Shown: piece by piece, positions 6,193-61,635 of the stretch | Numbering within the stretch: position 1 is the first letter of the stretch | Layout: each line of letters opens with the position of its first letter | DNA from: an uncultured Actinomycetes bacterium | Lineage (GTDB): Bacteria > Actinomycetota > Thermoleophilia > RBG-16-64-13 | DNA length: 64,000 bases | Direction of reading: 5' to 3' | Assembly (NCBI GenBank): GCA_903873715.1 | Contig: CAIQPS010000142.1 | Span: forward strand, 1,693 to 65,692 | Translations under genes and position numbers: made by a program | Notes under the pieces: model-generated | The model's input: only the letters and a program-made list of their open reading frames with translations | The model's database searches: none | Told to the model about the DNA's origin: nothing

Positions 6193-7157
6193 CAAAGCTT
6201 CCTCAGCGCGCGCATCTTGGCCGACGCCGCGCGCGGGTTCATCTCCAGTTCGTCCGGCCCGGGGACCACGGCCTTCGGCGTCATGATCGCCCCGGTCGCC
6301 TTGGCGCCGCATGCGCACACCGGGAAGTCCGGTGGGCAGACGCACGGTTTGGCTTTGCCGGTGAAGAAGTCCTTGACCATGCGATCTTCCAGCGAGTGGA
6401 AGCTGATGACCGCCAGGACGCCCCCGCTCTGCAGGAGCTCGAACGCCAGAGGCAGGGCGCGGGCGAGGCTCTCCAGTTCGCCGTTGACCTCGATGCGCAG
6501 GGCCTGGAAGACGCGCTTCGCCGGATTGCCCGCAGCGAAGCGGGCTGGGGTCGGGATGGCGCCCTTGATGGTCTCGACCAGTTCCGAAGTATTCGTGAAC
6601 GGCTTCTTGTCGCGGCGCGCGACGATGGCGCGCGCGATCCTGCGGGAGTACCGCTCCTCGCCGTAACGGCTGAAGATGTCGGCCAACCCGGTGTCAGGCC
6701 AGGTGTTGAGGATGTCCGCCGCGGTCACCCGCAGCGCCGGGTCCATCCGCATGTCCAGAGGGGCGTCGTAGCTGTACGAGAAGCCACGCTCGGGTGTGTC
6801 GATCTGCATGCTGCTGACGCCGAGGTCCATGTAGACGTGGGTGACATGCTCCCCCTCGTCCACAAGGTCTTCGAGACTGTCTGCAAAATCCCCGCGCATG
6901 AACCTGGCGGCGCAGTTCAGCCGGCCGGCGAGCGACTCGTAGTATCCCTCGGCCACCGGGTCGCGGTCGCAGCCGATCAGCAGGCCTTCGGCGCCCAAGA
7001 GTGCGCCCACCGCTTCCGCGTGGCCCCCGGCCCCGAACGTGCAGTCCACGACGCGGCTGTCTTCCTCCACGTCGAGTAGCCGGATCAGGGGCTTGGTAAG
7101 CACGGGGACATGCGCCATGGCCATCTCCATCACGAAGGATGCCGCCGCACTAGGCAT
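6192..7157 (-). CDS. rsmH: 16S rRNA (cytosine1402-N4)-methyltransferase RsmH (MraW)
   Basis: Conserved MraW sequence (HVPVL..., DCTFGAGGH, SFHSLEDR). The true start is probably one of the internal Met residues at residues 10-14 (7118-7130), since mraZ ends at 7150. Confidence 0.85.
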   Translation of the reverse strand: MPSAAASFVMEMAMAHVPVLTKPLIRLLDVEEDSRVVDCTFGAGGHAEAVGALLGAEGLLIGCDRDPVAEGYYESLAGRLNCAARFMRGDFADSLEDLVDEGEHVTHVYMDLGVSSMQIDTPERGFSYSYDAPLDMRMDPALRVTAADILNTWPDTGLADIFSRYGEERYSRRIARAIVARRDKKPFTNTSELVETIKGAIPTPARFAAGNPAKRVFQALRIEVNGELESLARALPLAFELLQSGGVLAVISFHSLEDRMVKDFFTGKAKPCVCPPDFPVCACGAKATGAIMTPKAVVPGPDELEMNPRAASAKMRALRKL

Positions 7158-7823: not shown

Positions 7824-10109
7824 CTATTGGACGCGCTTGAGCGGCGCGTACTCGAGCAGCAGGCGCTTCTGTTCCCTGCTTTCGGAGAAGAAGACCCGCA
7901 CCACCCCGCCCGGCTCCACGCCGAGCACCACGCCTTCGCCGAACTTGGCGTGCAGCACTTTGTCGCCGGGCGAGAACGCGCCGGCGGCGACTTCCTTCTT
8001 CTGTGGCGCCGAAGGCCGGCCGGTGGGCACCGCGCCGCCGAGGCCCCGGTCGCCGGATGGCCGGCTCCCCCATCCGCCGGACCCGGAACTACCGTATCCA
8101 CCCTGAGAGCTGCGGTATCCACCCCCGCGGCCTCCGGGATACGTCTTGTACTGCTCGGGGATCTCGCTGAGGAACCGGCTGGGCAGTTTGTACCCGGCGC
8201 TGCCGTGCAGCGTCCGGGAGCGGGCGAACGACAGGAACAAGGTGTCCCGCGCCCGGGTGATGCCCACGTAGCAGAGGCGCCGCTCCTCCTCCAGACGCTC
8301 CTCGTCCAGGGAGCGCGAATGGGGGAAGAGGCCCTCCTCCATGCCGGTGAGGAACACGACGGGGAACTCGAGCCCCTTGGCGTTGTGCAGGGTCATGAGG
8401 GTGACCAAGGGCTCGGTCTCCTCCATGCTGTCGATGTCGGCGTAGAGACTGATCTCCTGCAGGAAATCGGCGAGGGTGCCCTCGGGGTTCAGCCGGTCGA
8501 ACTCCTGGGCCACGCCCACGAACTCCTCCAGGTTCTCGAGACGGCCATCGGCCTCCAGGGTGCGCTCGGCTTTGAGCGCAGAAGCCAGCCCACTCTCGTG
8601 CAGCACCTGGCGGACGGTTGCCGCCACTTTGCCGGAGGCCTGCTCCCATGCGGCGAGATCCTGCGCCAGTTTGGTGCACGCGCTGACGGCCGCGCCGCCC
8701 AGACCCGCCTCGGCGGCGTAGAAGAGCGCCTCGCGCATCGGCACGCTGTTCTCCTGGCCGTACATCTGGAGGCGGCCGATGGCCACATCCCCCAGACCCC
8801 GGCGGGGCGTGTTGATGATCCGCACCAGGGAGATGTCGTCGGAAGGGTTGAGCGTGACGCGCAGGTAGGCGAGCAGGTCCTTGATCTCGGCTCGCTGGTA
8901 GAACTTGGTGCCCCCTATGACCCTGTAGCCGATGCCCTGCCGCACCAGCATGTCCTCGATGACCCTGGATTGAGCGTTCACGCGGTAGAACACGGCCACG
9001 TCCGACGCGGGGCGGGTCTTGAGCTGCTTGACGATCTCGTCGCAGACGAGCCTGGCCTCTTCGTGCTCGTCGGCGCACTCGAAGACGGTGATCGGCTCGC
9101 CGGCCCCCCGGTCGGTCCACAGGTTCTTGGGCTTGCGGCCCCGGTTGTTCGACACCAGCGCGTTGGCAGCGTCCAGGATGGTGGTGTACGAGCGGTAGTT
9201 CTGCTCGAGCTTGACCACGGTCGCATCCGGGAAGTCGTCCTCGAAGCTGAGGATGTTCCGGATGTCGGCGCCGCGCCACGAGTAGACCGACTGATCGTCG
9301 TCGCCGACCACGGTGACCTGGCGGTGCTCCTCGGTGAGGAGTTTCACCAGCATGTACTGGGCCCGGTTGGTGTCCTGGTACTCGTCGACGAGCACGTGGC
9401 GGAACAGATCCCGGTAGTAGGCCAAGCGTTCGGGGAACAGTTGCAGCACGTCCACCATGCGCATGAGCAGGTCGTCGAAGTCGAGCGCGTTCGCGTCGAG
9501 CATGCGGGCCTGGTAGCGCCGGTACACGGCGGCCGTGATGTCGTGGAAGCGCTCGTCGTCGTAGCCGCCCTCGGTGTCCCATGCCGTACCGCCGGCGCCG
9601 CCCCCGCCGCGGGCGAACTCGTCCACGTCGATGAGCTTGTTCTTGGCGTCGGAGATGACGTTCTGCAGCGCCTTCGGCGTGTACCGCTTGGGATCGAGGC
9701 GCAGGTCTTCCAGGCAGCGGCGGATGAGCCGTGCAGAATCGTCCTCGTCATAGATGGTGAAACTGGTCTTGTAGCCGAGTAGTTGAGCATCCTGGCGCAG
9801 CATGCGCGCGCAGGAGGCGTGGAACGTCGACACCCAGGTCCACCGGGCGGCCGGACCGAGGAGGGTCGCCACCCGCTCCTTCATCTCCCCGGCCGCTTTG
9901 TTGGTGAACGTGATGGCCATGACCTGATGCGGGCGCACCAAGCCACTCTCGATGAGGAAGGCGAGACGATAGGTGAGCACGCGCGTCTTGCCCGAGCCGG
10001 CCCCGGCGAGCACGAGCAGCGGTCCGGATTCGTGGAAGACGGCCTCTTGCTGACGCTCGTTGAGCTCCGGAGCCAGACGGGAGCGCGGGTCAGACGTCGT
10101 CGGGGCCAT
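7824..10109 (-). CDS. pcrA: ATP-dependent DNA helicase PcrA/UvrD (superfamily 1) with a Gly/Tyr/Arg-rich linker and a C-terminal Tudor-like domain
   Basis: 761 aa with Walker A ([11 protein letters not shown]), DEYQDTN, and UvrD C-terminal helicase motifs. The C-terminus has a [33 protein letters not shown] low-complexity tract, followed by a [14 protein letters not shown]... Tudor-like domain. Confidence 0.85.
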
Positions 10110-10914
10110 CGAGCCTCACAGGGTCGCATTCGTTCAGGGTCTCGGGCGGCGGAGTGGCGCCGCGCAGTTCCTCGATCTCGTTCTCCAGCATCACGACCCT
10201 GCGGACGAGACAGCGCATGGCTTCCGCGACCGGGTCGGGAAGGTGCGTGTAGTCGATGTCCGGGATCCCCACCTTCGCCCCGGCCGTGATGACCGGCCGG
10301 CCCGGGTTGCCGACCACGGTGGTGTTGGAGGGCACGTTCTGGACGACGACACTCCCCGCCCCCACCTGCACGTTGTCGCCCACCGTGATCGAGCCGAGGA
10401 GCAGCGAGCCCGCGCCGATGACGACGTTGTCGCCGACGGTCGGGTGGCGCTTGCCGGTCTCCTTGCCTGTCCCGCCGAGCGTGACGCCCTGGTAGATGGT
10501 CACGTTGTCGCCTATCTCGGCCGTCTCCCCTATGACGACCCCCGAGCCGTGGTCGATGAACAGCCCCTCGCCGAGCTTCGCCCCCGGGTGGATCTCTATG
10601 CCGGTGAGCAACCGCCCCACCTGGGACACGAGCCGCGGGGCGACCGGGACTTCCATCTCCCAGAGCGCATGGGCGGCACGGTGGAACCACAGGGCGTGAA
10701 GACCGGGATAGCAGGTGAGTATCTCGAACTCGTTCCGGGCGGCGGGGTCCCGCTGGCGGATGGCCGCGATGTCCCGGCTCATCTGAGACGCCGCGCCCCT
10801 GCCCGCGTCCCGGACGCTCGCGGCGGCCTTGAACGCGCCGGACAGAGCTTCCCGAGCGGCGAAACGGCACCAGCCGCCGGCCTGCAGCATGAGAGTGTTC
10901 TGGGGTCCAGTCAT
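10090..10914 (-). CDS. cysE: Serine O-acetyltransferase CysE
   Basis: Hexapeptide-repeat left-handed beta-helix ([38 protein letters not shown]) and a conserved N-terminal motif ([20 protein letters not shown]). The conserved core probably starts at [12 protein letters not shown] (about 10782). The track ORF adds 44 aa upstream. There is a C-terminal extension of about 45 aa. The stop overlaps the pcrA start by 20 nt. Confidence 0.8.
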
Positions 10915-10970
10915 GGGGCGTTACGATACCATGCGCCGGCGGCCCGCCCGGCCGTGGGTCATGGCCCCGC

Positions 10971-39969: not shown

Positions 39970-40049
39970 TGCGGGTGAGAGGACTCGAACCTCCACGTCA
40001 AAGACACATGCTCCTAAGGCATGCGCGTCTGCCATTCCGCCACACCCGC
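39970..40049 (-). tRNA. tRNA-Leu (anticodon TAG), class II with long variable arm
   Basis: I folded by hand the reverse complement GCGGGTGTGGCGGAATGGCAGACGCGCATGCCTTAGGAGCATGTGTCTTTGACGTGGAGGTTCGAGTCCTCTCACCCGCA. The anticodon loop is CTTAGGA, the T-loop is GTTCGAGTC, and the variable arm is 13 nt. Coordinates +/-2. Confidence 0.75.
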
Positions 40050-40108
40050 CTGACGCTTCACAGCTCGAACCAACCCCGCGGGGACCGGCAGCTTACCGGT
40101 TCCTGAGG

Positions 40109-40183
40109 GGTGAACGATGGGACTTGAACCCACGACCGCTGGGGCCACAACCCAGTGCTCTGCCAACTGAGCTACGTTCACCA
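40109..40183 (-). tRNA. tRNA-His (anticodon GTG) with encoded G-1
   Basis: The reverse complement GGTGAACGTAGCTCAGTTGGCAGAGCACTGGGTTGTGGCCCCAGCGGTCGTGGGTTCAAGTCCCATCGTTCACC forms a cloverleaf. The anticodon loop is TTGTGGC. An extra 5' G pairs with C73. Coordinates +/-2. Confidence 0.75.
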
Positions 40184-40393
40184 CGACTGTCCGCCGCGCG
40201 CCCGAGTGGGCTTGCCGCAGACCGTCTCGTAAGCCCAAGTGCGTGCCGAACCCGACCCCTGTCTCACGAGCGCAGGACAGTATAGCGGATTGGGCTGGGG
40301 TGCAAAGGAAAAGGCCCGCCCGATCGACCCGGGTGGGAGCTGTGTCCACGAGACCGGGCGCGGACTCAGGGGGCTACGGGATACTTCGTGATG

Positions 40394-40888
40394 CTATTCG
40401 CGCAAGCGTTTGAGGTCGTGGCCCACACCGGGGCCTCGAGGCCACGGCCTCCAGGACAGAGCGGCGAGCACGGGCCCGAGGTGCTGAGGATCCCGCACCA
40501 GTTCGCGCCCTTGTGGCCAGTGACCGCTTTCCCAGAGAGCCCATCTCCCATCCTCCAGAAGCAGGATGTCGATGGAGTGGCTGAAGTCACGCCGCCCAGT
40601 CAGAGAGAACGAGAACCGGAAAACGCGGACACGCCTGTCTCTCGGCACCGGATACCAGTCACCGACGAGTCGCTCCACTCCGTCAGGCCCGATGCCGGTA
40701 CCGGCCGGTTCCCAGAACTTTCGCGGCACCGACTTCGCTAGATCCTCGAGCATGGCCGCGACGCTTTCGGGCGGATGCTCTATCGGCAGATCATCCGGAC
40801 TGACGCCGGACCGCTTCCAGGCAGCATTGATCCTTTTGTCCCTTGTCCGCGACAAGCACTGGCCAGCCGGCCCTCCACGCCCGCTCAC
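40394..40888 (-). CDS. Hypothetical Trp/Arg-rich protein (164 aa) in the inter-tRNA segment
   Basis: GTG start preceded by a clear GGAGG Shine-Dalgarno 5 nt upstream. An 11-bp palindrome GGTAAcTTACC lies between a putative promoter and the RBS. Local GC is noticeably lower than the window average. No recognisable domain. Confidence 0.45.
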   Translation of the reverse strand: MSGRGGPAGQCLSRTRDKRINAAWKRSGVSPDDLPIEHPPESVAAMLEDLAKSVPRKFWEPAGTGIGPDGVERLVGDWYPVPRDRRVRVFRFSFSLTGRRDFSHSIDILLLEDGRWALWESGHWPQGRELVRDPQHLGPVLAALSWRPWPRGPGVGHDLKRLRE

Positions 40889-41047
40889 CGAGGCCTCCTG
40901 TGTAGCTTGACCTTACGGTAACTTACCTTCCGGTCACATTAACAACACAGATGCGTCCAGCGCAAGTCCAGAGAGTGGTATTTGTCGATCGTGAGAAATC
41001 GAAGATAGTGCCGAACCCGGAAAGTGACGTGGGCCCCGAGCCCGCTA

Positions 41048-41121
<74 letters not shown>

Positions 41122-41159
41122 TCGGCCCACGATGCCGTGGAGGAATGCTCACCGAAAGG

Positions 41160-41232
41160 AGCGGGCGACGGGGTTCGAACCCGCGACATTCAGCTTGGAA
41201 GGCTGACGCTCTACCAACTGAGCTACACCCGC
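41160..41232 (-). tRNA. tRNA-Gly (anticodon TCC)
   Basis: The reverse complement GCGGGTGTAGCTCAGTTGGTAGAGCGTCAGCCTTCCAAGCTGAATGTCGCGGGTTCGAACCCCGTCGCCCGCT forms a cloverleaf. The anticodon loop is CTTCCAA. The discriminator is U, as in bacterial tRNA-Gly. Coordinates +/-2. Confidence 0.75.
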
Positions 41233-41260
41233 CCGGCGATGAGCCTTGCCGAGACGATAG

Positions 41261-41334
41261 TCGGGACGGGCGGATTCGAACCGCCGGCCCCCTGCTCCCA
41301 AAGCAGGTGCGCTACCAGGCTGCGCCACGTCCCG
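41261..41334 (-). tRNA. tRNA-Pro (anticodon TGG)
   Basis: The reverse complement CGGGACGTGGCGCAGCCTGGTAGCGCACCTGCTTTGGGAGCAGGGGGCCGGCGGTTCGAATCCGCCCGTCCCGA forms a cloverleaf. The anticodon loop is TTTGGGA. Coordinates +/-2. Confidence 0.75.
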
Positions 41335-47689: not shown

Positions 47690-47766
47690 TGGTCGGGGTG
47701 CCGGGATTTGAACCCGGGACCTCATCGTCCCGAACGATGCGCGCTACCAGGCTGCGCTACACCCCG
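47690..47766 (-). tRNA. tRNA-Pro (anticodon CGG) with encoded 3' CCA
   Basis: The reverse complement CGGGGTGTAGCGCAGCCTGGTAGCGCGCATCGTTCGGGACGATGAGGTCCCGGGTTCAAATCCCGGCACCCCGACCA forms a cloverleaf. The anticodon loop is TTCGGGA. Coordinates +/-2. Confidence 0.75.
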
Positions 47767-47795: not shown

Positions 47796-50700
47796 CTATT
47801 CTACCACCAGTCGGCGGCCGTTCACGGTGTCGCAGACATTTTTAATGCCACAACTCGCGCATCCGGGGCCGAACTGCGGGTGGAAGTCTCCCGCCTCGAG
47901 ACCTGAGAGGGCATGTTCCAGCCGTTTTTCGAGCCCGGCAAGGTCCCCCCTCCCATAGTCGAAACCCACCGGTTCGTCCGGTCGCTCCAGAAACAGGAAC
48001 TCCATGCGCACCGCGGATGCCCCCGCCTTGAGGGCTGCCAGACAGTACATCGCGGCCTGCAGGTGGTACGTGGCGGCGGCCTCCTCCGGAGAGCGGCCGT
48101 TCAGAGCGTTCGACTTGTAGTCGGCTATCAGCCAGCGTTCGTCGCTGCGGACGAGCAGGTCGATGACGCCGTTGACGGCGACTCCCCCGTGCACGAAGAA
48201 GAAGGGTGTCTCCTTGGACGCTTGGGCCAGACCGGTCGCGCGGGCCGCATCGGAGGTCCAGAAGGCGGCGGTGAGCGCTGCCGCCCGATCGACCACGCGA
48301 CTCCCTGCCGCCAACCCCTGCTCCCGGGCGATCTCCTGGGCCAGCGCCTTGAGGCCGGCGCCCTCGGGCTCGGGACCGGCAAGATCCAGCCGCCGCAGCA
48401 GGGTATGGACGAGCAGGCCCACCTCGATGCCGCTGTGCAGTTCGTCCCCATCCAGGAGGCCGTCGGCTGCCGGCTCCCCATCGTCCGCCGCACCGTCACC
48501 GTCGGTGGGGAACCCGAGTGCCCGCGCCGGTAGCTCCGGGCCGAGCCCGAGGACCCGCTCCAGGTAGAAGCGTTGCGGGCAGCGATCGTAGGCCGACAGC
48601 GCCGAGAAGCTGACCTGCCGGGCGGCGGGCGGCGAACTCGGGACGTCCAAGAGACACGGGGATGCAGCCACCCTTGCCCGCTCGGACGGCCCGGCGGAGG
48701 CCACGGCCCCGTCATCCGGCCTGCATGCGGCCACGCCCTTGACCACGGCGTGGATATCCTCCAACGGCACCACCTCTCCGGGGAGCGGCGGATGATCCAA
48801 GCCGAGCGCGGTCACGATCGTACCGATACGGGCGGCGTCCGGGTCGTCCTTGGCCTTACGGGAACCGACCAGGACCAACTGGTCCCGAGCCCGGGTCATG
48901 GCCACGTAGAGCAATCGGATGTCCTCGTCTTCGGCGCGACGCTGCTGGTCGGCGATGATGGCTTCGACCGGCCCCCATCCCGGCCTATCCGGGTCGCTCT
49001 TGTCGACGCGCAGCCGCGCTGCCATGGTCCCGTCGCTGCCCACGAGGATCTCGGGAGCCTTGTACGGGTTCGGATCCTTGTGCAGCCCCGCCAAGATGAC
49101 CACGTTGAACTCGAGACCCTTGGCTTGGTGTACCGTCATGATGCGCACCACGTTCTCGCCCTCGGCCAGGCTGGGAGCATTGCCTTCGTCGTCCCCCATG
49201 TCGCTGAGCGACCCGATGAGGGTCACGAAGCCCTTCAGATCGGGGCCTTCGAGGTCCTCGTACTCGGCAGCCATCCTCATGAGCTTGCGCACGTTGGCGA
49301 ACCGGCGCTTGCCGTGCGGCGCCGCAAGCAGGCAGAGATCGTAGTCGCAGGCGGTGACGGCATCGTCGATGAGGCGGGACAGCCCGGGGCGTCCGATCCG
49401 CAACCTCAACCTGTCGAGCCGGTCCTGGAGGCCCTGCAGGCGGGACTCGTCCGCCGTCTCCAACATGCCTGCGAGCGCCCCGTCGCGGACTACGTCCCAC
49501 AATGAGAGCGCGCGGCGGCCGCGCGCGGCGCGGCCGATCTGGTAGAGGCAATCGTCGCTCACCTCCACCAACGGCGACCGAAGGACCGTGAGCAGCGCCA
49601 GGTCGTCGTGCGGGTTGAGCAGCAAGCGGAGCAGGGCCAGGATGTCGGCGATCTCGTCCTGCGAGTAGTAGCCCTTGCCCCGAACCACGTACACCTCGAG
49701 CCCGCGTGCCTGCAGGGCATCCTGGTACTCGTTGACCTGAGTGAGTTGCGGCAGAAGCACCACTATGTCCTGCTTGCTCCAACCACGCTCGTCGACGAGC
49801 CGGCGAGCCGTGTCGGCTACGACATAGGCCTCGGCTTGCTGCTTGGTCAAGAACCCTTCTTCGCCGTCGGGCGCCGCCCGGTCCACCACCAGTATCTCCG
49901 TGGGGCCGGCCGTGCCGCGCGGTTCGTCGCCCGCGGAGCACCCGCCATCCCGCCCGGCCTGCAGCGGGCCGAAGCGGTCCGCGAAGAGAGAGGGCCTGCC
50001 GAACAGGTGGTTGACGAACGCTATCAGTTCGGGACGGCTCCGATAGTTGGTGTCCAACCGGTGCTGCGCGATCCCCCCATCTTCCATGCGCCGCATGAAC
50101 ACCCCGACGTCCGCCCCCCTGAAGCTGTAGATGCTCTGCCGGGCGTCCCCGACCATCAGCTGCTTCTCCGGGCGAAGTCCGTCGATGATGGCGCATTGCA
50201 GTTCGTTGGTGTCCTGGAACTCGTCCACCAGGATGTGCGATGCGATGACCGGGCCCCTCGCTCCTCGGGAGTCGTCCAGCATGAGCTTGGCCCTGACCTC
50301 CAAGTCCGAGAAGTCGAGGACCCCGCGAGCCTGCTTGTGCGATTCGTACAGCTCGTGGAAGACGCTCAGCAACTTGTTGACGACGTCCACCAGCCTGCCA
50401 AGCTCGGTCTGCGCCAGGGTCTGCCGGTAGCGGATGAGCGCGCCTTCCACAGGCTCCAGGTAGGGCTTGGCACTCGGTGTGGACCGGGAAGGGAAGAACT
50501 CTGAAGTCTCGGCCACCCGGCAGTGAGCATCCCCTTCGCGTTCGACCTGCTCGAGCCACAGGCGGCATCTGTTCAGCCGGTCCAGGCTCTTCCGCAGATC
50601 GGACCCTATCTTGGGAACGGCGTTGCCCTGAGCCAGAGCGTGGTCGCAGGCCTCCACGAGCGCTTGCCGGGCGCCGGGATCGGATGGCGCGGCGGTGATC

Positions 50701-51245
50701 TGCACTTCCGGGGACTGGCGGCCAAGGCCGCGCAGCCGGTCGTAGAGCGGCAGCACCAAGTCCTCCATGCCGTCACCCCGGGAGGCCAGCACCTGCAGGT
50801 CCTCCTCCGAAGCCTGTTCGACCACCTTGGCCCACGCTTGGCGCCAGACCTCCTTCTTGATGAGCTGCTCGGCATCGGCCTCGAGCACGCCGAAAGAGGG
50901 GTCGACGCCTGCCTTGAGGGCCTCCGCCGCGAGGAGGCGCCGGCACAGGCCGTGGATCGTGCCGATCGCCGCTACATCGAGCGACCGGGCGAGCTCCGGC
51001 TGCCCGAATCGCACCAACTCCTTGCGGATGCGCTCCGCCAGCTCCGACCCGGCTTTGCGCGTGAACGTGACCGCCGCAAGGTCCTCGAGCTTGAGTCCCA
51101 GGTCGAGAAGGCAGTGCACGAAGTAGGCGACGAGCAGCTTGGTCTTCCCGCTGCCTGCGCCCGCGGCGACGAGAGCCCGGGGGGCCTGCTCGAACAGCAC
51201 CGCGCGCTGCGCGTCGGAAAGGGAGGCTTGATCGCGGTAGTCCAC
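47796..51245 (-). CDS. addA: ATP-dependent helicase/nuclease subunit AddA (RexA): UvrD-like SF1 helicase with C-terminal RecB-family PD-(D/E)xK nuclease
   Basis: Walker [20 protein letters not shown], helicase motifs III-VI, and a C-terminal nuclease motif IDLLVRSDERWLIADYKS. The track ORF (to 51542) was trimmed. The GTG start at about 51245 has an AGGG RBS and lies 8 nt downstream of the addB stop. Confidence 0.8.
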   Translation of the reverse strand: MDYRDQASLSDAQRAVLFEQAPRALVAAGAGSGKTKLLVAYFVHCLLDLGLKLEDLAAVTFTRKAGSELAERIRKELVRFGQPELARSLDVAAIGTIHGLCRRLLAAEALKAGVDPSFGVLEADAEQLIKKEVWRQAWAKVVEQASEEDLQVLASRGDGMEDLVLPLYDRLRGLGRQSPEVQITAAPSDPGARQALVEACDHALAQGNAVPKIGSDLRKSLDRLNRCRLWLEQVEREGDAHCRVAETSEFFPSRSTPSAKPYLEPVEGALIRYRQTLAQTELGRLVDVVNKLLSVFHELYESHKQARGVLDFSDLEVRAKLMLDDSRGARGPVIASHILVDEFQDTNELQCAIIDGLRPEKQLMVGDARQSIYSFRGADVGVFMRRMEDGGIAQHRLDTNYRSRPELIAFVNHLFGRPSLFADRFGPLQAGRDGGCSAGDEPRGTAGPTEILVVDRAAPDGEEGFLTKQQAEAYVVADTARRLVDERGWSKQDIVVLLPQLTQVNEYQDALQARGLEVYVVRGKGYYSQDEIADILALLRLLLNPHDDLALLTVLRSPLVEVSDDCLYQIGRAARGRRALSLWDVVRDGALAGMLETADESRLQGLQDRLDRLRLRIGRPGLSRLIDDAVTACDYDLCLLAAPHGKRRFANVRKLMRMAAEYEDLEGPDLKGFVTLIGSLSDMGDDEGNAPSLAEGENVVRIMTVHQAKGLEFNVVILAGLHKDPNPYKAPEILVGSDGTMAARLRVDKSDPDRPGWGPVEAIIADQQRRAEDEDIRLLYVAMTRARDQLVLVGSRKAKDDPDAARIGTIVTALGLDHPPLPGEVVPLEDIHAVVKGVAACRPDDGAVASAGPSERARVAASPCLLDVPSSPPAARQVSFSALSAYDRCPQRFYLERVLGLGPELPARALGFPTDGDGAADDGEPAADGLLDGDELHSGIEVGLLVHTLLRRLDLAGPEPEGAGLKALAQEIAREQGLAAGSRVVDRAAALTAAFWTSDAARATGLAQASKETPFFFVHGGVAVNGVIDLLVRSDERWLIADYKSNALNGRSPEEAAATYHLQAAMYCLAALKAGASAVRMEFLFLERPDEPVGFDYGRGDLAGLEKRLEHALSGLEAGDFHPQFGPGCASCGIKNVCDTVNGRRLVVE

Positions 51246-51252
51246 GGGGACC

Positions 51253-54246
51253 CTAGCCTCTCCTGGCCCTGCAGACCGGGCCCAATTGGCAGTAGTCCGG
51301 ACATTTGCGCCGGGTCTGCGGCAGGATGTCTCCCCGGCGCATGCCGCCGGCCGCCTGCTTGGCCAATCCCAGCGCACCTTCGAGCATCGCCTGGAAGCCC
51401 TCTTCGTCGGAGGTGGCACAGTCCTTGACCTGCTTGCCCAGCAGGTCCTCCGAGCCGGGAGCGGCCACCCCGGTCCGCTTGCGATCCTTGGCTGAGAGAT
51501 AGACACCACCGACGACCTCGGCATCCGGCCGCTCGGCAGCAAGAGCCAGCATGTACAGAGGGAGTTGCAGGGCCTCCTCGGTGCCTATCTTGTTCTTGCT
51601 CGGTACGCTGCCGCTCTTGTAGTCCACGATGAACAGGTGGTCCCGGGTGGAGTGATCTATCCGGTCCACACGACCCCTGAGGGCCAGCCCACCCACATCG
51701 ACGCCGTCCACCCCGCCCACTGTGGTCTCGGTCTCGAACGGCTGCAAGCTGCTCTCCGCGTCCGCTTCCATGGCCAGGACCTCGCGTACCCAGCCCCTCA
51801 ACTTCCAGCCCATCACCCGGCGCTCGGCGACCGTGCCGGGGCACCGGTCGCTGTTTACGGCAGCATCGACAAGGCCGGCGGCGATGGCCTGCGCCATATC
51901 CAGCTCCGTCCTGCGGAGCGGCAACGCCTCTCTGGACTTGAGTTCCAGGAAGGTGTCCCGCAATACCTGGTGAAGGAGTTCGCCGGTGACCCGATTGTCG
52001 GCCAGGGTCTCCATGTCGTCGGCGCCCACGACCCTCTCGATGAACCAGGAGAACGGGCACTTGAGGTAGCTCTCCAGAGAGGACGGAGAGAACGACCCGG
52101 TGGCTGCCAGCTCGGCCTTCACCGCATCGCTGACGAACCCCGCCGGCGATCCCGAACGCGTCCAGGATGGAGGCGCGAGAGGCGCAGGGCGGCATGAGTC
52201 GTGTGGCTGCAACCCCCCTGCGGCGCAGGCACGAAGGTAGTGCCTCATCGACGGCGCCTCGCCGGCCGGGTAGACCTGGTCGGCCAGCGTCCGGTGGATC
52301 ACGCCGGAGTCCTCGACGCCCAACAGCATCTTCGACCGAGACCAGTAGTAGGACTGCCCGGCGAAGCCTCCCGCGTCATCCGCGTCCCGGGCGCTCAGGA
52401 ACAGGTGCCGCCGGGCCCGGGACAGAGCCCGCACGAACAGCGCTTCCTCGTCGTCCGGCTGCTGGTTGAAGACCTCCCCTCCCAGGTTTTCGAGCCTGGT
52501 TCGCTGGGCCGGTGTGAGTAGACCCGGCCGGTCCCCCCGGCGGGGGAACTCACCCTCGACCAGGCCGAGGATGAACACGGTATCGAAGAGCCGGGCCCGT
52601 GCGCGATGGGCCGTGAGGACCTGCACCGCCCCTTCGGGGGCAGTGGGCGCCCCGGCGACACCGACCCGGGCAAGTGCCGGAAGAAGCACTTCGACTCGAA
52701 GCACGCCCTCCGGCAGGCTACCTTCGGTGCGGAAGGCCGACAACTCCGAGAGGGCGTCCCGCAAGGCGCGCGCCGCCCGGGCGTCGGCGCCCATATCGAG
52801 CGCGGCCGTGCCGGCGCGCTCCGGGCCGCTCGCCGCGCGGGCGAAAGCGGTCAAGCATGCGGAGAGCATCTGTTCGCCCAACCGCTGGGCGGCGTCCAGG
52901 TCGACGGACCGCTCCCCGCCGCGTGTCACGACGACGTCCATGAGCGCCTGCAAGGAGCCCTGGACCAGCGACTCCGCAGACCGGGCCAAAGCCTGCACCC
53001 CGCGGGCGGTGCCGCGGAGGTAGGCCAATTCCACGTCGGCGGCTTGCTCCAACGTCAACAGGCTGAAGGGGCCGCGCAGGTAGTCGGCGACGGCTTCCGC
53101 GTCATCTGCGGCCACGCCCCGCACTCCGGCCAGGAAAGCGTGCCCCAGGCCCGTCTCCCCCAGCGCGACCCGCTCGTCGACCTCGCACGGGATACCGCAC
53201 GAGAGCAGCACGTCCTCGAGCAACCTGCCCCACGTCTTGGTGCTGCGGACGATGACCGCTATCTGGCCGGGTGCCGTGCCGCACCGGATGCGCTCCGCGA
53301 TCTGCTGGGCAGCCAGTTCGGCCTCGTTGCGCTGTCCGGAGGCCAGCAGGAAGCGGACTCCCCCATCCTCCTCGTCCCACGCGACCGGCGCCGGCTCATC
53401 GGGCGATAGGTTCTCGGCGAAGTGTCTTTCCAGATACATGCCCGCCAGTGACGTGTACCGCTCCTCAGACCGCAACACCTCCACCCGGCCGGCGGCCGAT
53501 CTCTCCCAGGCCCGCAACTCTTCCGGGGTGGTGAGACCTGCGTAGCCGATATCTTGAGCGCCGTCCTCCCGGTCTGCGTCCAGCACCAGCAGGATCTCGG
53601 CGTTCCCGGCCAGGGTCTCGAGTAGCTTCCGCTGGGCGAGCGTGAACGAGGTGAAGCCGTAGAACGCCAGCGGACGGCGCCACTCGGACGCAGCACCCAA
53701 AGCCTCGCGCACGGCGTCGGACCGGTCGCAGAGCCCCAACTGGTCCCTGAGAGCGGAGTACCGAGCCAGCAGCCGCTCGATATCGGCCGCGAGAGCCGCG
53801 GAGCCGGCATCGGCAGCCGCCCAGCGCGCCAGCAGCCTCCCGATCTCCTCCAGGCTTCGCCCGCTGTCTCCCAGTTGCTGCAGCAGCGCCGCCGTGACCC
53901 CTGCCATGCCCGGGAACTCGGCCGAGAAGCCCTGGGCCCGAGGCGGCTCCTCCCGCAGCAGGTGACTGACCAGTAGCGTGCGCTCGAAGTCCCCGATGTA
54001 GCGTGGCGCCCTTCCGAGCAGCAGGCGCACCAAGCCGTCGAACGTGACCGCGGGCGACTGGCCGATGAGCGCTCCCTTGCGCTCGGCCATCTCCGCCGAC
54101 AGGGAACGAGCGTCCGGGCTCGTGGGGACCACGATGAGCGGCTGCAGTCCGAGCCGCGACTCCCACCACTGCAGCACCCGGCCCAGCTTGCCGGAATTAG
54201 CATGGCCCAGGATGAGTGTGAGACCTATGACGGGGACGTCGTCCAT
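51253..54246 (-). CDS. addB: ATP-dependent helicase/nuclease subunit AddB (RexB): degenerate helicase-like N-domain plus C-terminal RecB-like nuclease with Fe-S cysteines
   Basis: N-terminal Walker A only (GHANSGKL). C-terminal nuclease motif HLFIVDYKSG. There are four Cys (CPFSW...CPDYCQLGPVC) in the pattern of the AddB iron-sulfur staple. It lies upstream of addA, as in the Bacillus addB-addA operon. The start was chosen at the second ATG (MDDVPV...), because the first ATG of the track ORF overlaps a putative -10 hexamer. Confidence 0.8.
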   Translation of the reverse strand: MDDVPVIGLTLILGHANSGKLGRVLQWWESRLGLQPLIVVPTSPDARSLSAEMAERKGALIGQSPAVTFDGLVRLLLGRAPRYIGDFERTLLVSHLLREEPPRAQGFSAEFPGMAGVTAALLQQLGDSGRSLEEIGRLLARWAAADAGSAALAADIERLLARYSALRDQLGLCDRSDAVREALGAASEWRRPLAFYGFTSFTLAQRKLLETLAGNAEILLVLDADREDGAQDIGYAGLTTPEELRAWERSAAGRVEVLRSEERYTSLAGMYLERHFAENLSPDEPAPVAWDEEDGGVRFLLASGQRNEAELAAQQIAERIRCGTAPGQIAVIVRSTKTWGRLLEDVLLSCGIPCEVDERVALGETGLGHAFLAGVRGVAADDAEAVADYLRGPFSLLTLEQAADVELAYLRGTARGVQALARSAESLVQGSLQALMDVVVTRGGERSVDLDAAQRLGEQMLSACLTAFARAASGPERAGTAALDMGADARAARALRDALSELSAFRTEGSLPEGVLRVEVLLPALARVGVAGAPTAPEGAVQVLTAHRARARLFDTVFILGLVEGEFPRRGDRPGLLTPAQRTRLENLGGEVFNQQPDDEEALFVRALSRARRHLFLSARDADDAGGFAGQSYYWSRSKMLLGVEDSGVIHRTLADQVYPAGEAPSMRHYLRACAAGGLQPHDSCRPAPLAPPSWTRSGSPAGFVSDAVKAELAATGSFSPSSLESYLKCPFSWFIERVVGADDMETLADNRVTGELLHQVLRDTFLELKSREALPLRRTELDMAQAIAAGLVDAAVNSDRCPGTVAERRVMGWKLRGWVREVLAMEADAESSLQPFETETTVGGVDGVDVGGLALRGRVDRIDHSTRDHLFIVDYKSGSVPSKNKIGTEEALQLPLYMLALAAERPDAEVVGGVYLSAKDRKRTGVAAPGSEDLLGKQVKDCATSDEEGFQAMLEGALGLAKQAAGGMRRGDILPQTRRKCPDYCQLGPVCRARRG

Positions 54247-54254
54247 CTCCCACA

Positions 54255-54276
54255 TTGTAAAGGCGCCGCCGGACAG
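54255..54276 (-). promoter_or_regulatory. Putative PafBC-dependent (RecA-NDp-like) promoter driving a leaderless addB transcript
   Basis: The minus strand reads TGTCCGGC-ggcgcctt(8 nt)-TACAAT-gtgggag-ATG. This is a TGTC-containing upstream element at the 8-nt spacing reported for the mycobacterial RecA-NDp motif (tgtcRgtg-N8-TAnnnT), then a -10 hexamer 7 nt from the start codon. It is in the 50-nt divergent region shared with the WYL regulator gene. The consensus is quoted from memory. Confidence 0.35.
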
Positions 54277-54305
54277 GAACAGCCAGCGTGCGATAGTCTT
54301 AGCGC

Positions 54306-56447
54306 ATGAGCCGGGACAAAGAAAAACTCATACGGCAACTCTCCCTCCTCTCGTTCCTCCTCAGCAAGCCCCGCCCGTTCACGGCGCAGGAGATCCAGGA
54401 GTCGGTCGAGGGCTATTGGGGGATGACCGACGACACGTTCACCCGGCGCTTCAACGGGGACCGGCACGACCTCGGCAAGGTGGGCATCGAGATACGGGTG
54501 CTCACGGGCTCCGATGCGGCCGATGTGGGCGAACAGCAGCTCTACCTGCTTCGCCAGGACGATTTCCGGCTGCCGGAGATCGACCTGACCCCCGAAGAAC
54601 TGACCGCGCTTTCCATGGCCCTCGCCGCGCTGGATGGGCGCTTCGCCTACGCGCGGCCGCTGCGCCTGGCCCTCACCGCCATCTGCCACGGCCGCCAGGA
54701 CGCCCTGGAGGAACAGTTCGGCCTGCTGCCGGTGGCCCTCGCGCCCGACGAGGACGCCCGCAGGGCGGGCAAGCAGCTGGCTCGGCTCGAGGACGCGGTC
54801 GCCCGCGGGCGCACGGTCACCTTCTCATACCCCGTGAGCGAGCAAGATGCCTCACTCATGGACCGCACGCTCGACCCGTACAACCTCTTCTTCATAGACG
54901 GCCACTGGTACGTGGTGGGCCGGGACCATCTGCGCGACGCCATCCGCACCTTCCGGGTCACCAGGATCAACGGGCCCGTGAAGTTCGTGACCGAGAAGAA
55001 CCGCGACTTCAACCGGCCGGCAGACTACGACCCCGCTGCCTACGGTGCGCGGCCGCCCTGGCTTCTCGGCCCGGTGCGCGGGACCGCCACCATCAGCGTG
55101 GGTGACGACATGGCCTGGTACGTGGAGCGGCTCGCCCCCCACGTACACGCCCTCCCCGGCGGCGACGACACCTGCACCCTCTTCGAGATGCCCTATGCCG
55201 ACGCCGGGCTGCTCCTCTCCTGGGTGGCAGGGCTCGGGAGTTGCGGCGAGCTCCTCGCCCCCACGCAGCTTCGTGACGAGCTGATAGACGGGCTACGCAA
55301 AGCGGCCGAAGCTCATACCGGCCCGGCGGACGACCCCGCTGCCCCCGGATCCCGGGAGGCGGCGGCCGCCTCGGGAGCGCCCAAGCCGGCCCCGAGACGG
55401 GGCTCCGCCGCCGCGCGCAAAGCCGCGGCCGACGACGAGGACGGCGAGCCCATCGCCGTGGAACACCTGGCGCGCGCGGTCGCTTTACTCCACTACCTGG
55501 TGGAACCGGAGCGGCCGGAGCTCGTTCCGTGGAAGGTCATCGAACGGGACCTCGGCCTCACCCGGGCCGAGCTCGAGGAAGACCTTCGCCTGGTCAACAT
55601 GGTGAACTTCGGGGGCGGCACCTACGCCTTGTTCGCGGAAGCTGAGCCCAAGGGCATCCGCGTGACCCGCGACGTCATGGCCGACACCTTCGCCCGTCCC
55701 GCCCGGCTCTCCCCTCTCATGGCCCGGGCGCTCTTGCTCGCCCTGGACCTGCTGGGCGACGCCTTCACCGCGCCGGGGCTGAAGTCGCTCACGCCGGTGC
55801 GCGAGAAGATCCAGGCCGTCGTCGGGGCCTCCCCGGAGGACGGTTCCGTCGTGGTGGACCAATTGCTGGCCCCGGCCCACGAGATCACCGCCGCCATCCG
55901 CCGGGGCATCCACGACCGCCGGGTGGTCGAGCTCGAATACCTCACCAAGGGCAGGCTCGAAGTCTCCACAAGGCAGGTGGAGCCCTACCTCCTCTTCCGT
56001 GGCCAGGAAGCCTGGTACCTGGAGGCGTTCTGCCTGAGCGCGCAAGCCGAACGGACCTTCAAGCTCGAGCGGATACGCTCCGCCCGGGTCCTCGACGAGA
56101 CCTACACGCCCCGCCCCGAGGTTGACCTGACGTCGCGCCGGAGCGGCCAGGCCTTCATCCCCGGCGACGTGGCCTCGTGGGCGACGGTGCGCTTCCAGCC
56201 CCGCTGGCTGCGCCACCTGCAGGACCGGGGCACAGACTTCTTCGCCCTGCCGGACGGCCGGCTGGAGGCACGCATCCCGTACGCCGACGAGGGCTGGATG
56301 GCCTACGACGTCCTGCGCTTCCTCGGTGAGGCGGTCCTGGAGAGCCCGCAGTCGGCGCGCGACCGCATCAAGGAACTGGCGGCCGCCTTGCACGCTCGCT
56401 ACGAGAGCGGGACACCGGCGCAGGCATCCACAGGAGACACACCGTGA
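54306..56447 (+). CDS. pafBC: Naturally fused tandem HTH-WYL-WCX regulator (PafBC-like DNA-damage-response activator)
   Basis: 713 aa made of two consecutive repeats. Each has an N-terminal winged HTH, a WYL domain (first RTVTFSYPVS...NLFFIDGHWYVVGRDHLRDAIRTFRVTRI, second RRVVELEYLTKGRLEVSTRQVEPYLLFRGQEAWYLEAFCLSAQAERTFKLERI), and a C-terminal extension. This is the architecture of PafB+PafC, which occur as a single fused polypeptide in some Actinobacteria. Confidence 0.75.
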   Translation: MSRDKEKLIRQLSLLSFLLSKPRPFTAQEIQESVEGYWGMTDDTFTRRFNGDRHDLGKVGIEIRVLTGSDAADVGEQQLYLLRQDDFRLPEIDLTPEELTALSMALAALDGRFAYARPLRLALTAICHGRQDALEEQFGLLPVALAPDEDARRAGKQLARLEDAVARGRTVTFSYPVSEQDASLMDRTLDPYNLFFIDGHWYVVGRDHLRDAIRTFRVTRINGPVKFVTEKNRDFNRPADYDPAAYGARPPWLLGPVRGTATISVGDDMAWYVERLAPHVHALPGGDDTCTLFEMPYADAGLLLSWVAGLGSCGELLAPTQLRDELIDGLRKAAEAHTGPADDPAAPGSREAAAASGAPKPAPRRGSAAARKAAADDEDGEPIAVEHLARAVALLHYLVEPERPELVPWKVIERDLGLTRAELEEDLRLVNMVNFGGGTYALFAEAEPKGIRVTRDVMADTFARPARLSPLMARALLLALDLLGDAFTAPGLKSLTPVREKIQAVVGASPEDGSVVVDQLLAPAHEITAAIRRGIHDRRVVELEYLTKGRLEVSTRQVEPYLLFRGQEAWYLEAFCLSAQAERTFKLERIRSARVLDETYTPRPEVDLTSRRSGQAFIPGDVASWATVRFQPRWLRHLQDRGTDFFALPDGRLEARIPYADEGWMAYDVLRFLGEAVLESPQSARDRIKELAAALHARYESGTPAQASTGDTP

Positions 56448-56920
56448 GGTTCTGGCTCCGCTGGGCGGCGAACAGCGTCGCCGTCTTCCTGGCTCTATAT
56501 CTGGTCGATTCGCTGCTCCACGAGCGGTTCCGTTTCACGGCGACGTGGGCGGCGGTCATCGCGGCCATCGTCTTGGCTTTCGTCGACAGCTTCGTCAAAC
56601 CGCTGCACCGGGCCCGCAGCAAGCCCGGCCGGGCGGCACTGGCGGCGGCGCTCAACGTCCTGGTCGACGCGCTCATCCTCCAGTTGTTCGTCTGGGTGGG
56701 TGCAGGCCTCACCACCCTCGGCTTCCTCTGGGTGCTGTTGGCAGCCGCCTTCGCGACCCTGGTCGCCGGGCTCATCAACTCCCAGGTGGGCTTCACGGCT
56801 TCAGGCAAGCGCCGCCCCGGATCGGGCGGGCGAGAGCGGGCGGGATCGGGCCGCGAAGGGCGCAGACAGGCTACGGATGAGCCGAAACCGGTGCGTACCG
56901 AGCGGAAGCGCCTGACCTAG
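56444..56920 (+). CDS. Small membrane protein of the YvlD/DUF360 (phage-holin-4_2-like) family with basic C-terminal tail
   Basis: GTG start overlapping the pafBC stop (GTGA). There are four hydrophobic segments (WAANSVAVFLALYLV, WAAVIAAIVLAFV, AALNVLVDALILQLFVWV, LGFLWVLLAAAFATLVAGLI). The C-terminus is Arg/Gly-rich. Confidence 0.6.
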   Translation: MRFWLRWAANSVAVFLALYLVDSLLHERFRFTATWAAVIAAIVLAFVDSFVKPLHRARSKPGRAALAAALNVLVDALILQLFVWVGAGLTTLGFLWVLLAAAFATLVAGLINSQVGFTASGKRRPGSGGRERAGSGREGRRQATDEPKPVRTERKRLT

Positions 56921-60567: not shown

Positions 60568-61635
60568 CTAGAGACGGGCCAGATACGCCTCGATGCCGTG
60601 CATGATGGCCTCGGCCTCGCGGACCACGACCTTCGGGTCGGCCAACTCGTCGGCCTCTTCGGGGCAGCTCAGGAACCCGGGCTCCACCATGACGGCCAGA
60701 GGCTTGATCTCCCGCAGGCAGGCATAATTGCGACCGTGGGTATGGAGGTCCACCCGCCCCAACTCCGTGCTGATGGCGTCCACGATATAGCCGGCCAGAC
60801 GTTTACCGGCCTTGGACATGTAACCCGAGTTGGCGAAGTAATAGGAAGCCGCGCCCCGGGCCTTCGGTGACGAGGCATAGGCGTGATGCAGACAGATGTG
60901 GATGTGCGGCTCCCACGCGTTGGCCGCCTCCATGCGCTCGTAGAGCGGCATGCTGGTGTCGGTCTCGCGCACGAGGTTCACCTCGGCCCCGGCCTCCGCG
61001 AGCAACACCGCCAACTGTTTGGCGAGCGCCAAGTTGGCGTCCTTCTCCGTGGTGCCGTTGGCGGCCTGATAGCCGCGCTCCCGGCCGCCGTGAGCGGCGT
61101 CGATGCCCACCTTGAGGCCCGAGAAGGAATCCAGCCCCACATAGCCGTCCATGCGGTCGGGGATGTTGACCGACGGGAGAGGGTCCCCGGCCTTCTGCAG
61201 CCGGCGCAGCCTGTCGAGAGTGGTCTCTCCCACGATGCCGTCCACCGTAAGGCCCGCGTTGCGCTGGAACTCCGTGACGGCCACTTCGAGCAGAGGCGAG
61301 AATATGCCGTCCACCGGACCGCAGTCGAAACCGAGCTCGTCGAGGCGGCGCTGCAGATAGAGGACGTCGTCCCCCCGCATGTAGGGCACCCGCAGGTAGA
61401 GCAGCCGGTCGCCGGGCTCGTACCCCGCCTCCACGAGTTCGGTCCAGGTGTTGTCTTCGACGATGCCGTCGGCGAAGAGCAGGCGGCGCTGCTGGAAGGC
61501 CCGGATGGCGCTCTCAGTGTGTGGGCCGAAGAAACCGTCGGCCCCCTCTTTGCCCAGGAAGAACCCCAGGGCGGCGAGGCGGGTCTGGATATCGACCACC
61601 TGTTTGCCTGAATTGCCTCTACCGACAGGACGCAA
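60568..61635 (-). CDS. N-acetylmuramoyl-L-alanine amidase (Amidase_3 family) with two N-terminal peptidoglycan-binding (PG_binding_1) domains
   Basis: Two LGF-type PG-binding repeats (DIQTRLAALGFFLG..., YLQRRLDELGFDCG...), followed by an Amidase_3 catalytic domain (VGIDAAHGG...E...H). Confidence 0.8.
   Translation of the reverse strand: MRPVGRGNSGKQVVDIQTRLAALGFFLGKEGADGFFGPHTESAIRAFQQRRLLFADGIVEDNTWTELVEAGYEPGDRLLYLRVPYMRGDDVLYLQRRLDELGFDCGPVDGIFSPLLEVAVTEFQRNAGLTVDGIVGETTLDRLRRLQKAGDPLPSVNIPDRMDGYVGLDSFSGLKVGIDAAHGGRERGYQAANGTTEKDANLALAKQLAVLLAEAGAEVNLVRETDTSMPLYERMEAANAWEPHIHICLHHAYASSPKARGAASYYFANSGYMSKAGKRLAGYIVDAISTELGRVDLHTHGRNYACLREIKPLAVMVEPGFLSCPEEADELADPKVVVREAEAIMHGIEAYLARL

Follow-up and report, generated by a model that had tools for sequence, protein, structure and literature searches.

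We have analyzed a 64,000-nucleotide stretch of DNA (the window) from an uncultured bacterium of the Thermoleophilia (contig CAIQPS010000142.1, assembly GCA_903873715.1), in which a gene for a fused PafBC-like regulator (paf) is transcribed divergently from an addB-addA operon. We consider it probable that, as in mycobacteria, the addBA promoter is activated by the fused PafBC-like protein encoded next to it, and that the spacer between the two genes carries two back-to-back promoters for the housekeeping RNA polymerase. The leftward, addB-addA promoter would combine a good -10 hexamer (TACAAT) with yGTCCG at -28 to -23 in place of a -35 element. The rightward, regulator promoter appears conventional and probably constitutive (TAGTCT with a -35-like hexamer), with transcription predicted to start at the regulator ATG. 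An earlier inspection of the letters without database searches, here called the sequence-only reading, had placed the two divergent starts about 50 nt apart and had described TGTCCG-N10-TACAAT-N7-ATG on the addB strand. Both statements agree with the window sequence, in which the longest-ORF (open reading frame) start codons of the ORF table are separated by 50 nt. A sigma-70 consensus and terminator scan of positions 53900-54700 gave no match, and no other promoter was found in the spacer, whose 50 nt leave no space for one.

The strongest evidence comes from orthologous loci. A scan of one genome per species yielded 80 Thermoleophilia loci with fused PafBC homologues. Group 1 comprises 21 of these (L001-L020 and L029, with 40-77% regulator identity), and together with the window it provides 22 spacers, which were aligned by anchoring on the addB -10. 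Their consensus is C-yGTCCG-N10-TACAAT. GTCCG stands exactly 10 nt 5' of the -10 in 19 of the 22 loci; exceptions are GTCCT in L002 and L029, a spacing 1 nt shorter in L020 and CATCCG in L001, and yGTCC lies near the usual position in 21. The hexamer is TACAAT in 19 loci and TAGACT, TAGCAT or TAAAAT in the remaining three. Each position of the box carries 1.0-2.2 bits of information and each position of the -10 carries 0.9-2.6 bits (2.2 or above at four of the six), against 0.0-0.4 bits over most of the spacer. No -35 consensus is found 16-19 nt upstream of TACAAT in the 22 aligned spacers. In the background, the rest of the 1.26 Mb examined, GTCCG occurs at the same offset for 18 of 3040 TANNNT hexamers (0.6%). 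Since the box and the -10 are kept while the spacer drifts, against so low a background, a chance resemblance is contradicted. This comparison is decisive in pointing to a real box, conserved beyond chance. The M. smegmatis PafBC consensus from chromatin immunoprecipitation sequencing, tGTCgg(N10)tA(N3)T, likewise has no -35, and the helix-turn-helix (HTH) domain of PafB reads its upstream part, which lies at -28 to -23 (PMC8635444). In geometry, GTCCG-N10-TAnnnT is identical to this promoter, which cryo-electron microscopy has defined as well. A start at 54247 would put the box of the window exactly at -28 to -23. Thus the PafBC/RecA-NDp promoter geometry proposed by the sequence-only reading is upheld, both by the published core and spacing and by its preservation in orthologous loci.

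The regulator itself is clearly a member of the PafBC family. In the 713-aa protein Pfam identifies WYL (E=6e-38) and WCX domains, two of each, together with HTH_PafC, and residues 11-699 of the protein align with residues 8-662 of the fused PafBC of Arthrobacter aurescens (PDB 6sj9, E=1e-28). The two halves match M. smegmatis PafB (residues 7-333) and PafC (415-696) in the RNA polymerase-complex structures 7p5x and 9fnd, with E values of 7e-18 to 2.5e-20. At least 120 relatives share the domain architecture. The profile matches and the end-to-end alignment to 6sj9 confirm the tandem HTH-WYL-WCX fusion that had been predicted. The further description of a natural fusion is correct in that the single chain is real, but it is not new, as natural PafB-PafC fusions have been described as class C WYL proteins (PMC6789036).

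Residues that matter for the function of PafB are largely retained. Six residues of the M. smegmatis PafB WYL domain, R181, Y196, R204, R208, R211 and R214, are needed for single-stranded DNA (ssDNA) to be bound and for activation (PMC11804915). All six are present in the regulator, as R187, Y202, R210, R214, R217 and R220, and they are invariant or nearly so among 75 Thermoleophilia homologues. In the first HTH domain (HTH-B), K5, R8, R46, K52 and Y76 of PafB are retained as K7, R10, R47, R53 and Y80. At R47, the counterpart of the base-reading Arg46 of helix 3, 72 of the 75 homologues have Arg; two group-1 proteins have Lys there, and one homologue has a gap. The position of M. smegmatis M47 is occupied by an Arg (R48 in the regulator) that is invariant in the 75. 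Throughout Thermoleophilia the recognition helix reads F-x-R-R-F-x-(G/S/A)-D-R (54441-54467 in the window), that is R-R-F-x-small-D-R, versus R-M-F-E-R-D-K in mycobacteria.

The divergent operon encodes a helicase-nuclease pair of the AddAB type. The AddB-type protein has a C-terminal PDDEXK_1 nuclease domain and a weak UvrD_C match, with no Pfam match to the UvrD N-terminal domain. Its N-terminus is degenerate and helicase-like, with only a Walker A motif (GHANSGK; G(P/H)ANSGK across the clade), and Cys730, 982, 986 and 992 (C...CxxxCx5C) are invariant among orthologues. The single AddB sequence finds no match in the PDB; only a profile does so, and a profile of 12 orthologues matches B. subtilis AddB (3u44_B) with E=7e-49 versus 1.6e-30 for mycobacterial AdnA. 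The AddA-type protein carries UvrD-helicase, UvrD_C and PDDEXK_1 domains, and its best PDB match is AddA (3u44_A, E=4e-61). An AdnAB identity was rejected by the profile comparison, and the earlier assignment of the pair as addB-addA is retained. All NCBIfam equivalog scores are below their cut-offs (addA_Gpos, 320 vs 708 bits; addB_Gpos, 61 vs 904; addB_alphas, 40 vs 487), which points to a divergent lineage of the AddAB family. The likely addA start is the GTG at 51245, 7 nt past the addB stop and preceded by GGAGAGG.

The addB start codon lies 6-10 nt 3' of the -10 in essentially all 22 loci (7 nt in the window) and is ATG in 19 of them and GTG or TTG in the other three. The distance is 9-10 nt in about half of the loci, which allows a leader of up to ~4 nt. 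The ATG at 54246 is the first after the -10 and has no usable Shine-Dalgarno sequence. A second in-frame ATG further upstream cannot be on a transcript from the addB promoter, since it overlaps the -10; its counterparts in other loci are out of frame or are followed by a stop, and the addB start is therefore placed at 54246. Residue 2 of B. subtilis AddB aligns with position 11 of the profile, so no longer AddB N-terminus is missing. Thus the claim of a leaderless addB holds for the window, where the gap is 7 nt and no start but the ATG at 54246 is compatible with the -10, although across the loci the term has to cover leaders of 0 to ~4 nt. The addB mRNA would be leaderless or nearly so. A crude base rate of leaderless genes in these loci tells little, since the start codons of longest ORFs cannot be relied upon.

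The regulator gene seems leaderless as well. TGCGC-TAGTCT-N6-ATG is kept there in 20 of the 22 loci, with information of up to 2.6 bits; such a spacing, 6-8 nt between -10 and start codon, is classic for leaderless genes. In most loci a -35-like cTGACc lies 18 nt upstream of this -10. The window has instead CGGACA, the reverse complement of the addB box, 18 nt upstream and hence at the -35 position of the regulator promoter. TGCG-TATGCT-N7-ATG is likewise seen at group-2 regulator genes, for example that of L031 near 6650-6680, so that a paf without a leader and with a conserved TGCG just 5' of the -10 seems general in the class. Elsewhere in the window, a leaderless-type TATCGT-N8-ATG is seen at the hexapeptide-transferase/UvrD-like helicase operon (10914-10945, minus strand).

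Together these features suggest the following course of events. DNA damage would generate ssDNA, an established ligand of PafBC (PMC11804915), which would bind in the WYL/WCX tunnel of the regulator. The N-terminal HTH would then read the GTC element and the second HTH would contact sigma region 4, as in the established sigma-adaptation mechanism of PafBC (PMC8635444). RNA polymerase would start 0-1 nt before the addB ATG, giving a leaderless addB mRNA, while addA would be translated from its own Shine-Dalgarno sequence. The precedent on which the sequence-only reading drew, control of adnA by PafBC in mycobacteria, is sound: adnA is exclusively PafBC-dependent there (PMC8682763). PafBC control of an enzyme that resects double-strand breaks would hold even with AddAB in the place of AdnAB.

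Several points weigh against this explanation. A -10 alone is often enough for an actinobacterial promoter, so that a basal, PafBC-independent transcription of addBA is possible, and many WYL regulators that lie beside their targets are repressors. Within the window the motif is no commoner than chance: TGTC-N12-TANNNT has one match vs 1.02 expected, with at least one match in 69 of 100 shuffles, and GTCCG-N10-TANNNT has two matches vs 0.83 expected, the second inside an amidase ORF (61299-61319). These window-only statistics are not significant and are uninformative alone. A scan of the 1.26 Mb for GTC[CAG]G-N10-TANNNT gave no second convincing box-bearing gene, either in the window or among the ~390 kb that flank the group-1 loci. 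The sole other repair-type operon of the window, a UvrD-like operon at 7824-10914, has no GTC box, and tblastn with E. coli RecA and LexA queries found neither gene in the 1.26 Mb examined. Finally, the second base-reading Arg of PafB, Arg50, is not conserved. The aligned residue is G51 in the regulator and is never Arg in the 75 homologues (mostly G, also A or D, in group 1; S or A in group 2). PafB R56 is lost in the window regulator and in most homologues, and the wing Trp70 is without an aligned counterpart, V74 standing there in a gapped loop where the alignment is unreliable. With R50 replaced and R56 and W70 not kept, contacts with DNA and RNA polymerase must differ in detail from those of mycobacterial PafBC. 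Strong as the family resemblance is, the contacts with DNA cannot be the same.

A wider reading makes the Thermoleophilia fused PafBC the ancestral form, a dedicated sensor hard-wired to the break-resection machine, rather than a global, proteasome-linked regulator. Each of the 21 group-1 genomes has paf divergent from addB-addA in the same extended synteny as the window, and the divergent arrangement is also present in the distant locus L065; the adjacency of the regulator to AddAB, noted at the outset for a single genome, is thus a feature of many. L065 is one of the other 59 loci (35-37% identity; Gaiellaceae, Miltoncostaeaceae and Solirubrobacteraceae). Except in L065 these have no addBA nearby, and the regulator lies beside dinB, dprA/comM or an OB-HD protein. 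In a midpoint-rooted neighbour-joining tree, weak both in its rooting and in its method, L065 branches at the base of the clade opposite group 1. It retains CGTCCG-N10-TAGGAT as well as the adjacency. Since L065 falls on the other side of the deepest split, the paf-addBA linkage may be ancestral. If the wider reading were true, AddAB would make ssDNA that activates PafBC, which in turn activates addBA, a self-amplifying two-part module. The box overlaps the regulator's own -35 region, so occupancy for addB could throttle the regulator. The tie between pafBC and the Pup-proteasome locus, described in reviews as tight (PMC8223512), would then be a later acquisition, as linkage on both sides of the deepest split implies. 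We hold this wider reading to be rather improbable.

The arrangement in L065 differs in detail. In this distant, lower-GC relative (L065:7540-7975, minus strand) the element lies 12 nt from the paf ATG but ~390 nt ahead of addB, and the interval before addB contains a basic ORF of 47 aa that has a Shine-Dalgarno sequence (GGGAGG) of its own.

A second alternative, in which the fused WYL protein acts locally as a repressor or autoregulator of the BrxR or CapW type and shuts off addBA, its own promoter or both until ssDNA releases it, seems unlikely. Such a role would suit divergent neighbours, a box that in the window overlaps the regulator's -35 position, with 18 nt between it and TAGTCT, and in most other loci borders on the -35-like cTGACc, and a protein that lacks the equivalents of R50 and W70. 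However, a box at -28 to -23 of a promoter without a -35 is the structurally defined geometry of the PafBC activator (PMC8635444). The site of a repressor would not need a fixed 10-nt phasing to the -10, yet the phasing is kept in 19-20 of 22 loci, and the closest solved homologues are the activators PafBC, PafB and PafC, not BrxR or CapW.

Slightly less likely again is that yGTCCG is read by a different factor, for example an alternative sigma factor or a further regulator, and that the adjacency is merely inherited synteny. The entire neighbourhood (anti-sigma-like gene, addA, addB, paf, PF04020 gene, pilT and others) is syntenic across group 1, so adjacency alone does not prove a regulatory link, and with only one box found there is no regulon to tie the box to PafBC. 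Yet binding of sigma region 4 at a -35 needs 16-19 nt, which a gap of 9-10 nt to a canonical TACAAT does not allow, and extracytoplasmic function (ECF)-type -10 elements are unlike TACAAT. Moreover, the core (GTC) and its spacing are exactly those of the PafBC element (PMC8635444), and L065, across the deepest split of the tree, retains both adjacency and box. That the RecA-NDp match is a functionless chance resemblance in a short GC-rich spacer, as its single occurrence vs 1.02 expected in the window might suggest, is very improbable given a diverging spacer between a box and a -10 that are kept in 19-21 of 22 loci, and a background of 0.6%. Activation of addBA by the fused PafBC-like protein is the explanation we prefer.

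The features of the region are listed in Table 1. The neighbours on the addBA side are a tRNA-Pro gene and a zf-HC2 anti-sigma-like gene; those on the regulator side are a PF04020 gene, PilT, an HDAC-like gene, NlpC/P60 and an amidase gene. The neighbourhood is housekeeping in character and none of these genes belongs to the Pup-proteasome system. No PafA-like gene was seen among the conserved neighbours in the 80 loci, as judged from cluster representatives of these neighbours, of which about half were Pfam-scanned, and with no dedicated PafA search. A defence-island interpretation was rejected, as PADLOC gave only generic WYL and UvrD domain matches in a neighbourhood that is housekeeping and syntenic. 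The GTG of the PF04020 gene (Phage_holin_4_2 family) overlaps the regulator stop codon (GTGA), and the gene is kept downstream of paf in 14 loci, which suggests that the two are probably co-transcribed. A tRNA-Pro(CGG) gene lies directly past the addA stop (47690-47766, minus strand), and a cluster of five tRNA genes (Leu, His, Arg, Gly, Pro) lies at 39970-41334 (minus strand), between the trigger-factor gene and the next ORF.

Table 1. Coordinates of the regulator gene, the addB-addA operon and the elements of the spacer between them, in window positions.
Feature	Position	Strand	Remarks
Gene for the fused PafBC-like regulator (713 aa), two HTH-WYL-WCX units in a single chain	54306..56447	+	Pfam and PDB matches
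Regulator-gene -10 hexamer TAGTCT	54294..54299	+	6 nt 5' of regulator ATG
addB-promoter "-26 element" tGTCCG, PafBC-type	54270..54275	-	GTC = 54274-54272
Spacer between tGTCCG box and addB -10, 10 nt	54269..54260	-	
addB-promoter -10 hexamer TACAAT	54254..54259	-	
GTGGGAG between TACAAT and addB ATG	54253..54247	-	7 nt
addB start codon ATG	54244..54246	-	7 nt 3' of -10; predicted leader 0-1 nt
Second in-frame upstream ATG overlapping addB -10	54255..54253	-	
addB-type subunit gene	51253..54246	-	longest ORF 51253-54255, 1000 aa
addA-type helicase-nuclease gene	47796..51245	-	longest ORF 47796-51542; probable GTG start 51245
158-aa membrane protein gene, four transmembrane segments	56444..56920	+	PF04020, E=8e-9

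Two further gene families were seen in the more distant loci. A dinB gene (Y-family polymerase, IMS Pfam domains) lies beside the fused PafBC gene in 11 Gaiellaceae-type loci (L025, L031, L040, L047, L048, L050, L055, L058, L063, L069 and L070), and in most of them it is divergent and immediately upstream of paf. This dinB itself looks leaderless, with GGTAGCCT-N6/7-GTG. As a second hard-wired PafBC target dinB is unsupported, GTC-N12-TAnnnT being found in only two of the 11 loci. The other family comprises proteins of 111-122 aa with no Pfam match and the motif E-x-E-C-A-x-x-L-D..G..W.YEP (L060:15372, L066:7442, L064:16492 and L069:16457, plus strand). In the four loci its gene is preceded by GTCCG-N10-TA(G/C)CCT, with the start codon 8-9 nt later, and it is a candidate for a second PafBC-box gene in Gaiellales.

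Overall, the PafBC-type addBA promoter appears, on mostly supportive evidence, to be a real but largely expected extension of a known system to a deep-branching lineage. The -26-element promoter of PafBC, so far defined in Actinomycetia, would thereby reach Thermoleophilia. What is distinctive is the adjacent AddAB target, the lack of a proteasome context, the two back-to-back leaderless promoters and the altered recognition helix. The locus is an exception to the generalisation of reviews that ties pafBC to the Pup-proteasome locus. The pairing of a natural recognition-helix variant with a GTCCG box bears on the readout of the GTC triplet, and a single polypeptide with an adjacent, 50-bp bidirectional leaderless promoter offers a compact in vitro system for the study of sigma adaptation. 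Literature searches yielded no publication that connects PafBC or WYL regulators with Thermoleophilia or with an addAB next to them.

Among known systems, the closest is PafBC of M. smegmatis and M. tuberculosis (7p5x, 9fnd), which has the same HTH-WYL-WCX unit twice, the same Arg and Tyr residues for ssDNA binding in the WYL domain of PafB, and Arg46. Its target promoter, tGTCnG-N10-TAnnnT without a -35, and its target, a helicase-nuclease that resects double-strand breaks (adnAB), are also alike. Unlike the mycobacterial heterodimer, the regulator described here is one polypeptide. Its gene is neither in a pafA operon nor beside Pup-proteasome genes, and its predicted target is adjacent, divergent and of the AddAB type. 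It has a small residue for R50 and an invariant Arg at M47, R56 and W70 are not kept, and the box is GTCCG rather than GTCgg. The fused PafBC proteins of Arthrobacter aurescens (6sj9), Kocuria rhizophila and Thermobifida fusca are likewise single-chain PafB-PafC, but the window regulator differs from these class C fusions in its linkage to addBA; its alignment to 6sj9 is distant and the linker between the halves is not conserved. The enzyme resembles B. subtilis AddAB (3u44), with a UvrD-like motor and a RecB-family nuclease in the A subunit and, in the B subunit, a Walker A motif only, a C-terminal nuclease and four Cys of the Fe-S type. It is very divergent from 3u44, although AddB remains the best profile match when mycobacterial AdnAB (6ppj, 7sjr) is compared. 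Finally, SiwR of M. smegmatis and DriD of Caulobacter are similar in that a WYL sensor with ssDNA as effector lies beside, or controls, a few damage-response genes. Those proteins, however, are homodimers of a single HTH-WYL(-WCX) unit with palindromic or other sites, whereas the Thermoleophilia regulator is a tandem fusion paired with a non-palindromic -26 element.

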